IMG/VR virus record: IMGVR_UViG_2740892369_000014
Length of the DNA: 27,818 bases
DNA from: a virus
Lineage: Duplodnaviria > Heunggongvirae > Uroviricota > Caudoviricetes
Reading direction: 5' to 3' (one strand)
The position numbers were made by a program. Below, piece by piece: positions 1-3,000 of the stretch; position 1 is the first letter of the stretch, and the number at the start of each line of letters is the position of its first letter.

Positions 1-3000
1 CAGGACAATAATCACCACACACAGAACACGGTTCATCTCTCTTTCACCCCACCAGTCCCGATAACGTCAGGACTCGCCAAGCGGTGGAAAAGAAAATGGC
101 AACCAGAATGACTAAAAATGAAATGCCGACGATTACACAGAGGATCTTCGCCAGCGTTATGAGTTTATCCGATATCATTAGCCACCACTCCATCAATCCG
201 CCTTTGTTATTTTCCCTTTGTCTGTATCAGCCAGGACAAAATCAATCAGCAGATTCGCTTCGTTTATCAATGTGCGGATTTTTGATACATGCGCGGATTT
301 AACCTGTTTCCACTCATTCAGCCCGGTAGCAAACACACTGGCAATGTTTTTATCCCGTTTCATGTCAGCGCAAGCCTGATTGAGTTCTTCCATCACACTC
401 ATTCGACGGGGATTAACGACAAAACCCTTCGTCCAGTATTCATAGAGAACATCGTCACACTCTTCCTGATACTGGATTACCTTGCCGCGGATTTCGGGTT
501 TTACTTTGTTGGGATTGATGGTTTGTAACCAGCCTGCAAGTTTTCGAAGCGGCAGGGACACCATATTGCGTCGTTTCCCATCCTCAGCAACCATAACGAT
601 TTCCGTTATAGTTGACGCAAAACGCTGTCTTAACTTAGCCAACTGTGATTGCCAGGCCAGCCCCATCCCCGCAACGACAGGTTTCATGGGAACGTATGGT
701 TCGCCGTTATGGTTAACCACATAAAGAGAATCGCCGTGAAACGGCACGGTCATCATATTCATCGGTTATTTCCTTTTAGTGATGAACCCTGCGCACAGGA
801 ATAACCAGCCCAAAGAGGGTTAACCAGACCACTGCCGGTTATCCACCAGGGCTCATCCTGAAAGGTTCTTTGGTTTATTTACGCTTGTGCGAAGCGCAGA
901 AATGACAAAGGCACCATTACGGTGCCTCTTCATGAAACAATCTTGTTGACTTTATTCACTTACATTTTGCCAGTTCGCAGGATTTCGTGTTGTCTACCCG
1001 CGTTGGCCAACGTCATTTTTCAGCAAAATATTCTGCTTACCTGTCGATACCCCAGCATGCCAGCGCACTCTCCTGGTCACGTCTTGATACCTGACCGTAA
1101 CAGTTGTTTGAACGGATACGGCAGTCTCTGCCACCGTCCTTAATCCACCAGCGAATCGCCTCACACGCTCCCCTGCGATCGCCTGCATTAAGCCGCTTAT
1201 AAAACGTCGACGGGAAACACTTACCGGGGCCAATGTTATAGGGGCAAAATGACGCGATACCTGCTTTTTGTGGCTCGGTCAGTGGAACTTTTATATTACG
1301 CTCCACCCATGCCAGCGCCTTATCCCGTTCGATAGCGTTAACCCGGTCGCATTTTTCCTTCGACAGCTTCATGCCAGGAATCACAGGCTTACCATCCACC
1401 ATGATGGCGCCTCGGCAGATGGTCCAGATACCCGCACCATCACGGTATGCCGTGGTGTGGTTGCCTTCCTTTTCATCCAGAAACTGGTCGAGGATTTCAG
1501 GCGCAGAAGCACCTGCGGCAATCAGCGCCAGAACGGCAGCCGATAAACCATAGCGGAGTTTCCTGCTCATCAGCTTACTCTCCCCGTGCCGCCTTACGCC
1601 TGTCCTCTCTGATTTTGAAATACAGGTTCGTCAGGTACGTCAGCAGACCAAACAGCAGACTCCCCAGCACGCCTATTGCCGCCCACTGAGACGGGGAAAC
1701 CCTGTCCAGCAACTGCAGGAACCAGTAGCCCGTTCCCACCGCTGACGTGGTGTATGACACACCTGTTGTGATTTTTTCCATCTGGTTCATACCCCGCCTC
1801 CCGCAATCCGGAAGCTCACAACAATAAAAAAGACCACCGGCACACACCGATGGTCCCTGACGCATGCTTACATCATCATGTCGCTGTCCGGTGTGGGGTC
1901 ACCGCTATCTGAAGCACTCCCCTCACCCGCGATGCCTTCCGGCTCCGGAGCTGCCGGTGCGCCCAGCAGTTCATCCAGAATGGCATCCACTTCTGCATCA
2001 AGACGCGCTTCCAGGTTATGGCGAAGTTTCTGTTTCAGTGCGCTCCGGACTTCTTCAGAGCGCAGGACTTCCTTCACTGCTTCAGCAGTGACCAGGGATG
2101 TAATTTCTGACATGGGATTTTCTCGTCGAAAGGTGTGATTAAGAAAGTTGCCGCTAAATGAGCGGCTCTTCGGGTTTGCTTCCGGCTGACTGACCGGCGC
2201 TGATTTTCTCAGCGGCCCTTTTGTCAATCTGCCTGCGCCAGCAATCGCGCACTGCCCTGTACCCACCCGAAAGGAGATACAGCACACAGACCACCGTACA
2301 GAAGTACAGCATTAACTGGTTCAGAAATGTCATAATTTCTTTCCGTTATTGTTGACAATAAGAACTGTTTTCATTAAAAACCAGAGTACGAAAGTATCGT
2401 TCCTTTATTTTTTCTCCATAGGTATCACCACCGCCAGCGTCCATTCCTGTCGCTGGCGGTTTTTTTTATCATGCCGCAGTGTCTGTGCTGTTCACTTCCA
2501 CCGCAATGCTGTCTATCAGTACCGGGTAAGTCGCATTCCTGGTAATGTCTGTCACATGCAGTTTATCCGCCGCAAATGCACTGACCGGTGACTGCGTCAG
2601 CGTGAACGGTGTGCCATCCTGACCATCAATAACCGGCGTCACCTGAAGGCTGTTATTCCCGGCAAAGCGGAAAGCCAGCGTATGCCATTCGTTATCAAAT
2701 GCGCCAAAGGTTCCCAGTTTCAGGTTGTTTGTCGCCACTTTCGCATTGTGGTACATCACATTCAGGTCTTTTGCATCTGTCTGGATGTAGAACGCTGCCA
2801 GCAGGTTATTCCCCCCGTCTCCGGTCAGGGCAACGCCCTGTGGCAGTGAAGAGACCGGCCAGTAAAACGCCATAACATACTGGTTCGCAGCCAGCGCTCC
2901 CGAAACCTTAAAGCGGCAGCGAATCTGCCCCCCTTTCTGTAACAGAGCCGCACCGTTGCCCGCGGCGTACTCCAGCACCCAGCTGCTTTTACCGGCCTCC

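Follow-up and report, generated by a model that had tools for sequence, protein, structure and literature searches.

In a lambdoid prophage, what occupies the short gap that separates an esterase gene from the lysis genes? The question is posed by IMGVR_UViG_2740892369_000014, a viral stretch of 27,818 nucleotides (nt; hereafter the window, at its full length). The window is a lambdoid prophage whose late genes are read on the minus strand and lie in the order lysozyme (1037-1570), holin, DUF826, DUF1378 (2154-2333), a 135-nt gap and the esterase (2469-4406). A preliminary description had placed in this gap a plus-strand promoter and a strong terminator, which together would define an antisense small RNA (sRNA). 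We found that the gap very probably contains a genuine, independently transcribed sRNA gene, with a published transcription start at the expected place in an identical prophage copy, a conserved promoter and a conserved terminator. Sequence comparison supports the identification of its product as a previously unannotated paralogue of the sRNA Esr41, and on balance we favour the interpretation that this RNA acts in trans through an Esr41-like seed. The features of the locus are as follows.

2154-2333, minus strand: DUF1378 gene, first of the DUF1378-DUF826-holin-lysozyme block (open reading frame (ORF) and annotation).
2352-2357, plus strand: −35 hexamer TTGACA, a perfect match (direct read).
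2358-2374, plus strand: promoter spacer of 17 nt (direct read).
2375-2380, plus strand: −10 element TAAAAA, which lacks the usual final T (direct read).
2388, plus strand: transcription start (A), from a published Cappable-seq start mapped onto identical sequence.
2388-2467, plus strand: predicted Esr41-like sRNA of about 80 nt (start site, terminator, sub-threshold Rfam match, profile and fold).
2410-2419, plus strand: seed UUUUCUCCAU, complementary to the chuA and cirA ribosome-binding sites.
2412-2419, plus strand: seed core UUCUCCAU, invariant, predicted single-stranded and anti-Shine-Dalgarno-like.
2431-2467, plus strand: intrinsic terminator with a 9-bp GC-rich stem, an 11-nt loop and T8 (direct read and fold).
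2431-2439, plus strand: 5′ arm of the terminator stem, CCGCCAGCG.
2440-2450, plus strand: terminator loop, 11 nt.
2451-2459, plus strand: 3′ arm of the terminator stem, CGCTGGCGG.
2460-2467, plus strand: T8 run.
2471-2469, minus strand (reverse complement at 2469-2471): esterase stop codon TGA, one base from the T-run.
2469-4406, minus strand: SASA/NanS-p-type sialate O-acetylesterase gene, 645 amino acids (aa), convergent with the sRNA (ORF and RefSeq annotation of identical DNA).

The combination TTGACA-N17-TAAAAA occurs once in the 27.8-kb window, compared with 0.01 occurrences expected from shuffled sequence. The promoter elements and their spacing are those of the preliminary description, which had set the hexamer one base too far to the left (2351-2356). 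The −35 hexamer lies 19 nt from the start codon of DUF1378, on the opposite strand. At the other end, the terminator reads exactly as first proposed (2431-2467, a GC-rich hairpin followed by T8), and its T-run does abut the esterase stop codon. In the minus-strand direction the hairpin leads into GGUGAUACC, which lacks a U-tract; it is therefore a one-way terminator directed against the late genes, and the earlier view that it cannot serve the late operon holds. The 80-nt RNA folds with a free energy of −22.5 kcal/mol (z = −5.0; none of 200 shuffled sequences was equally stable) into a 5′ hairpin of low stability, a single-stranded U-rich stretch that contains the core UUCUCCAU, and the terminator hairpin with its U-tail. 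The seed is unpaired in the centroid fold. This layout is the usual one of Hfq-dependent sRNAs.

Transcription from this promoter is indicated by published data on a prophage with the same sequence. The 933W prophage of E. coli EDL933 matches the window from the −35 hexamer to the terminator, with T7 replacing T8. Cappable-seq located a transcription start at 1358689(-) of the EDL933 genome (NZ_CP008957.1), between the esterase and DUF1378 genes (Zehentner et al., PMC10469882 Table S6), and three replicates reproduced this start in M9 and in acid cultures, both at stationary phase (PMC10469882). The base in question is the A between TAAAAACCAGAGT and CGAAAG, which corresponds to position 2388 of the window, 31 nt after the end of the −35 hexamer and 43 nt upstream of the hairpin; the start had been predicted near 2387. 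Assuming about 20,000 starts on 11 Mb of strand, we estimate the chance of a start falling within 1 nt at about 0.5%. We infer a 3′ end near 2467, which gives an RNA of about 80 nt, the length originally suggested.

The unit is widespread. A 131-nt segment was found in 234 phage records, mostly Stx1- or Stx2-converting phages, and the 85-nt RNA was found at 1,680 places that are spread over 767 of the 5,426 complete E. coli genomes (median 2 and maximum 6 per genome). No annotated feature lies beneath the RNA among the matches listed, nor in the RefSeq records that we sampled. Most copies are more than 95% identical. Five sampled chromosomal variants that are 80-92% identical, including some from uropathogenic E. 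coli (UPEC) and commensal strains, all occupy the esterase-[RNA]-DUF1378-DUF826-holin slot in the same orientation. In the Sp5 prophage of E. coli Sakai, the esterase gene is split by IS629 (L004 4504-5813) and the Esr41-like unit beyond the C-terminal fragment is intact (L004 6086-6163); this unit is identical to that of the window, apart from T7 for T8.

We aligned 14 sequences, consisting of 13 phage or prophage variants and Esr41. The −35 sequence TTGAC is invariant in all 14; in most variants the spacer measures 18 nt and the −10 element is TAAAAA, as in the window. No invariant run is longer than the 8-nt core UUCUCCAT (in the RNA, TTCTCCAT); a run of eight would have a probability of about 0.003 if the invariant columns were randomly placed. 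The terminator core and T-run are also kept, and the stem core CCGCCAG/CTGGCGG is conserved in all of the phage and prophage variants, with the eighth stem pair appearing as C-G, U.G or U-A. The discriminator, the 5′ body, the linker, the loop and the adjacent C terminus of the esterase are variable.

Which known RNA does this one resemble? At gathering thresholds, Rfam returned nothing at the sRNA locus, with matches to STnc100, DicF and three tRNAs elsewhere in the window. A permissive scan gave a full-length match to Esr41 (RF02676) at 2391-2467(+), with 29.5 bits and E = 0.003. This score is below the Esr41 gathering threshold of 102 bits, which was set on near-identical seed sequences; the true Esr41 of the Sakai SpLE1 island scores 108.6 bits. 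An nhmmer profile built from the 13 phage and prophage variants, without Esr41, recovered the Esr41 locus from promoter through terminator with E = 2.7e-7 (L003 1511-1622, in a search space of 22 kb). This recovery supports homology to Esr41, even though the Rfam score lies under the threshold for membership.

The alignment of the two RNAs begins at the −35 hexamer and stops just past the T-run, at TTTTTTTATCA. Esr41 has a homologous promoter (TTGACA, an AACTnTTTT spacer and an A/T-rich −10 element, its TATATA aligning with TAAAAA of the window), starts 30 nt past the −35 hexamer (31 nt in the window), and has a similar length of about 72-80 nt. The core UUUUCUCCAU is identical, the GGUAU that follows it is similar, and the terminator is of the same type (CCGCCnGC...GCUGGCG plus a U-run). 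By contrast, the 5′ third of Esr41 is unlike that of the window RNA, CCAU-GGGG in Esr41 corresponds to CCAU-AGG in the window, and the stretch of Esr41 that pairs with bfr, UAUUCCCUCCGCC, reads UAUCACCACCGCC. The genomic settings also differ. Esr41 (EcOnc14) is an Hfq-binding sRNA of the SpLE1/OI-43/48 island of E. coli O157:H7, where it lies downstream of iha and next to iha/ter, whereas in the window the locus belongs to the late region of a prophage and has the esterase and DUF1378 genes as its neighbours. The literature treats Esr41 as an sRNA specific to enterohaemorrhagic E. coli (EHEC) that belongs to the tellurite/iha island.

We then considered what the conserved core might pair with. 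Esr41 pairs with the ribosome-binding sites of chuA, cirA and bfr and thereby represses these genes, and its duplexes with chuA and cirA were validated by compensatory mutations (PMC5286369). Effects on fliC and LEE also belong to the known activities of Esr41. The Esr41-M1 mutation alters the GGG of CCAU(GGG)GUAU and is compensated by a change of CUC in the chuA sequence uuuuc(CUC)auggagaa (PMC5286369, primer table). Both the M1 bases and the compensating chuA bases adjoin the invariant core, so the validated duplex is contiguous with it. Compared with the single-stranded seed of Esr41, UUUUCUCCAUGGGG, the UUUUCUCCAU of the window is identical and is predicted to be unpaired, and the next three bases are AGG, not GGG. 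The chuA leader (CAUGGAGAA) and the cirA leader (CAUGGAGAU) are complementary to the seed core just upstream of the start codon.

Whole-sRNA duplex predictions against long 5′ untranslated regions gave meaningless long-range duplexes and were replaced by seed-region duplexes with shuffled controls. For the window RNA, the predicted seed duplexes have energies of −14.1 kcal/mol with chuA and −20.0 kcal/mol with cirA; for Esr41, the values are −20.2 and −26.4 kcal/mol. The window duplexes thus fall at the same site as those of Esr41 and are 6 kcal/mol weaker. Three divergent variants were also placed on the exact chuA/cirA site, whereas PasA, PasC and the second sRNA unit described below showed no pairing there and behaved like shuffled sequences. 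The prediction for bfr was uninformative because the K-12 leader was used, which is unlike the Sakai leader of Waters et al. The bases that flank the core vary among copies, reading AGG in the window and GGG, UGGG or GAAUC elsewhere. The GAAUC form belongs to the Stx2a phage Stx2_KH16-043 (L008 601-732), the most divergent phage variant (72% identical), which reads UUGAUUCUCCAUGAA. Its predicted duplex with the chuA ribosome-binding site CUCAUGGAGAAUCGC has about 13 contiguous pairs and an energy of −20.3 kcal/mol; this complementarity is longer than that of the window RNA and equal in energy to that of Esr41. With CCAU-AGG in place of CCAU-GGG and an altered bfr stretch, the window RNA probably shares the target set of Esr41 only in part.

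The slot itself has been linked to sRNAs before. In enteropathogenic E. coli (EPEC), PasA and PasC are Hfq-dependent RNAs validated by Northern blot (Pearl Mizrahi et al., PMC8550237). Both are flanked by the esterase and the late gene that follows it, in opposite orientation, '> < >', and EcOnc51/52 of Tree et al. are named as their EHEC homologues (PMC8550237 Table S6). Zhu, Shabalina and Storz described the order esterase, PasA/PasC, holin and lysozyme, with PasD/STnc100 across the esterase from PasA/PasC, and detected Pas genes in only 43 of the 36,687 phage genomes (bioRxiv 10.64898/2026.05.13.724894). The window sRNA has the same position, between the esterase and the holin-lysozyme block and opposite to both. 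The preliminary description had pointed to regulatory sRNAs in the general late region of Stx-type phages; the slot is precisely that of PasA, PasC and EcOnc51-52, although the window itself carries no stx genes. PasA and PasC of EPEC E2348/69 are similar in size (79-85 nt), have a perfect TTGACA about 30 nt upstream of the 5′ end, a terminator core GCCAGC...GCTGGC and, across the esterase gene, an STnc100/PasD-type sRNA, as in the window (4543-4715(-)). The mapped 3′ ends of PasC and long-form PasA are one or two bases from the esterase stop, like the window terminator. With respect to the Northern band of about 80 nt that marks the Hfq-dependent Pas RNAs, the window RNA has the 3′ stem-loop and poly-U, the predicted size, and a 5′ end mapped in 933W.

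Sequence does not extend this likeness. The body and seed of PasA and PasC are unrelated to those of the window RNA, neither scores with the Esr41 model, and, set against the BLAST and cmscan standard of Zhu et al., similarity is confined to the terminator, our profile giving matches at that level only (E = 0.2-0.7). Assignment of the window RNA to PasA/PasC by sequence was rejected, as the alignments fail outside the −35 hexamer and terminator core, as was identity with PasA-2, which is said to share the 3′ end of PasA, an end that the window lacks. Because the bodies cannot be aligned and the E-values are at terminator level, we regard PasA and PasC as positional analogues, not demonstrated homologues, of the window RNA. 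Other prophages hold two tandem antisense units in the esterase-lysis gap. In PP2 of E2348/69 (L001 2468-2740 (-)) and Sp12 of Sakai (L006 1900-2192 (+)), PasA or a PasA-like unit is followed by a second unit, TTGACAGGCATC...AGCCAGCG...CGCTGGCT T7, that abuts the esterase stop. Sp4 of Sakai (L005 3004-3100 (-)) has the second unit alone; EcOnc52 may therefore be this second unit and not a PasA homologue.

The anti-sRNAs AsxR and AgvB of Stx and lambdoid prophages are also short and Hfq-bound; within the moron region of these phages they converge with the late transcript, and they form families with a conserved 3′ part and a variable 5′ part. They differ in their slot (toxin or moron gene on one side, esterase on the other), in length (51-60 nt), in having an unrelated sequence, and in acting by sponging core sRNAs. 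The conserved 3′ domain of about 42 nt and the position that define them are both lacking at our locus: there was no RF02702 or RF02703 match in the window, including at E <= 10 in 1800-3000.

Several observations weigh against a trans-acting sRNA gene. Taken alone, the promoter is sub-consensus, and a generic promoter scan did not list it because the −10 element lacks its final T. RNAalifold returned only the invariant terminator core, with covariation limited to one stem position. Of the eight conditions in the Cappable-seq study, six gave no call for the 933W start (PMC10469882). EDL933 may hold several identical copies, which makes the assignment of reads to the 933W copy uncertain. The Hfq-CRAC (cross-linking and analysis of cDNAs) list of Tree et al. 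includes peaks in or beside the esterase-lysis slot in Sp4 and Sp12, and no peak at the Sp5 slot even though Sp5 carries the element. We found no earlier detection of this exact variant in the EcOnc entries (Sp5 slot), the EDL933 RNA-seq list (estimated 933W range), the StxS paper or reviews; the sole remark that touches on it is that Esr41 model matches are frequent near PasD (Zhu et al., bioRxiv 10.64898/2026.05.13.724894). As to targets, the validated pairing of Esr41 uses CCAU-GGG where the window has CCAU-AGG, and the stretch defined by Esr41-M2 as bfr-pairing is altered. In an RNA-seq screen of EDL933, the most abundant novel RNAs were the two copies of Esr41. That list, inspected for 'ncR133-136...' entries, has none in 1.33-1.37 Mb of AE005174, the genome version used in that study, a range that is our estimate for 933W. 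Expression thus seems to be low or restricted to certain conditions, which fits the weak −10 element and a start called in two of eight conditions.

How else could the locus be explained? The RNA, or convergent transcription, might act in cis on the late transcript, a reading that we consider unlikely and that is compatible with a role in trans as well. Perfect pairing with the esterase-DUF1378 intergenic segment could lead to RNase III cleavage, or transcription could collide with stray read-through, and lysis genes could thereby be damped in lysogens or the esterase uncoupled from lysis expression. The RNA is by construction perfectly complementary to the late mRNA. Its slot, directly upstream of the lysis block, is taken by RNAs whose bodies differ (Esr41-like, PasA, PasC and the second unit) but whose orientation does not, so position could matter more than sequence, and the partners of PasA in RIL-seq (in which interacting RNAs are ligated and sequenced) include esterase mRNA 3′ ends (PMC8550237). 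However, the RNA overlaps neither the DUF1378 ribosome-binding site nor any coding sequence. The 8-nt core stays invariant within a complementary segment that otherwise drifts, which pure cis pairing would not need, and Esr41 keeps promoter, core and terminator in SpLE1, with no esterase or lysis gene, and works in trans. The term antisense in the preliminary description is thus right for orientation; overlap is limited to the untranslated gap between two late genes, and the closest relative acts in trans from a non-phage island. A functionless relic, transcribed at a low pervasive level and hitch-hiking with the esterase-lysis module, is a slightly more remote prospect. Such a relic would account for a start in only two of eight conditions, the absence of the locus from two sRNA screens and the sub-consensus −10 element, and with most copies more than 95% identical, conservation could largely reflect recent spread. 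It would not account for divergent variants (72-84% identical) that keep the −35 hexamer, core and terminator while neighbouring bases and the esterase C terminus change, for stem changes that preserve pairing (C-G, U.G, U-A), or for the demonstrated phenotypes of the paralogue Esr41 (PMC5286369).

It is very unlikely that the hairpin serves only as a terminator or insulator, blocking stray plus-strand transcription into the esterase or stabilizing the esterase mRNA 3′ end, with a coincidental promoter. It does abut the esterase stop codon, and on the minus strand it would give a stable 3′ stem in a processed esterase mRNA. Yet there are no plus-strand genes upstream to terminate, the hairpin is preceded by a mapped start 43 nt upstream, Esr41 shares the conserved promoter, and the same unit is present in SpLE1 without any esterase gene. 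A small protein gene is scarcely credible. A 32-aa ORF is present on the minus strand (2346-2444), and some phage records annotate hypothetical proteins here, but this ORF has 23 aa in close variants, is absent from POCJ13, is replaced by other frames in PhiR5_1 and KH16-043, and has AGGA directly against its ATG; it was rejected for its lack of conservation. A plus-strand ORF is opposed by the sequence of the 80-nt RNA, which has no ATG. Each of the cis, relic and insulator readings is weakened by the invariant core, the mapped start and the occurrence of Esr41 outside a phage late operon.

The interpretation that we prefer, an sRNA gene acting in trans through an Esr41-like seed, builds on the anatomy, start site, conserved elements and Esr41 homology that are directly read here or published, and suggests the following mechanism. 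The gene would be an independent cassette, bordered in the prophage by the esterase gene and the lysis block. A sigma-70-type promoter, TTGACA-17-TAAAAA, would start transcription at A2388, and the RNA would most likely end in the T-run at 2460-2467, one base before the esterase stop, so that no antisense transcription would enter the esterase gene. The RNA of about 80 nt most likely depends on Hfq and has its trans activity in the lysogen, chiefly at stationary phase. Its anti-Shine-Dalgarno seed would pair with ribosome-binding sites, most likely the chuA and cirA ones, and so prevent translation, which is how Esr41 has been shown to act. On induction, Q-driven late transcription might interfere with the sRNA promoter and supply a perfectly complementary sponge.

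A broader view is tentative and, on present evidence, rather doubtful: the esterase-lysis gap may serve specifically for the exchange of autonomous sRNA cassettes, with Esr41 of SpLE1 as an escaped copy. Besides the Esr41-like unit, PasA and PasC, one more unit would count among the cassettes, and some gaps contain two in tandem; each would face the same way and carry a TTGACA promoter and a terminator of the GCCAGC type. The Esr41-like form, which is the common one in sequenced Stx phages, would allow most Stx1 and Stx2 phages to control host receptors for haem and siderophores (chuA, cirA) directly at the post-transcriptional level. In Stx2 phages it might act alongside AsxR, which derepresses chuS, and the seed-flank variants AGG, GGG, UGGG and GAAUC might tune the choice of targets.

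The surroundings of the locus hold other RNA elements. Immediately upstream of the esterase gene is an STnc100/PasD-type sRNA (RF02076, 104.7 bits) that lacks internal parts of the Rfam model; for the Sp5 copy the score is 207.7 bits. The esterase gene has this sRNA on one side and the Esr41-like RNA on the other, an arrangement comparable to that of PasD2 and PasA in EPEC. Three tRNA genes typical of Stx phages are found at 5488-5736 (-), and stx genes are absent between them and the esterase (window 4406-5736). Instead, TerB-family and DUF3927 genes, then STnc100, apparently lie between the tRNAs and the esterase; the first two were placed by comparison with the annotated O26 RM10386 locus, of which the alignment to the window was limited to a 201-nt query. 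The prophage looks like an stx-less relative of Stx phages. In its early region, there is a full-length DicF antisense sRNA (RF00039, 75 bits) at 19475-19526 (+). Positions 1-6000 contain 13 terminator-like sites, compared with 6.0 +/- 2.5 expected. On the strand of the late genes, strong hairpins with T-runs that resemble terminators occur at 1829-1858, just upstream of holin, at 4500-4518, just after STnc100, and at 5453-5472, just after the tRNA cluster.

The sRNA gene, very probably genuine and found in many genomes, belongs to a known kind, and is a modest extension of known biology rather than a new principle. The slot in most sequenced Stx phages holds a paralogue of Esr41, an element that Rfam thresholds miss, whereas PasA and PasC, the RNAs described from this slot, have been called puzzlingly rare. 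If the RNA is active, deletion of esr41 alone would leave activity in place, and the copy number and seed variants of a regulator of iron uptake would differ among lineages of Shiga toxin-producing E. coli (STEC) according to their prophage load. Carriage of Stx phages would then be tied to the control of haem and siderophore receptors.

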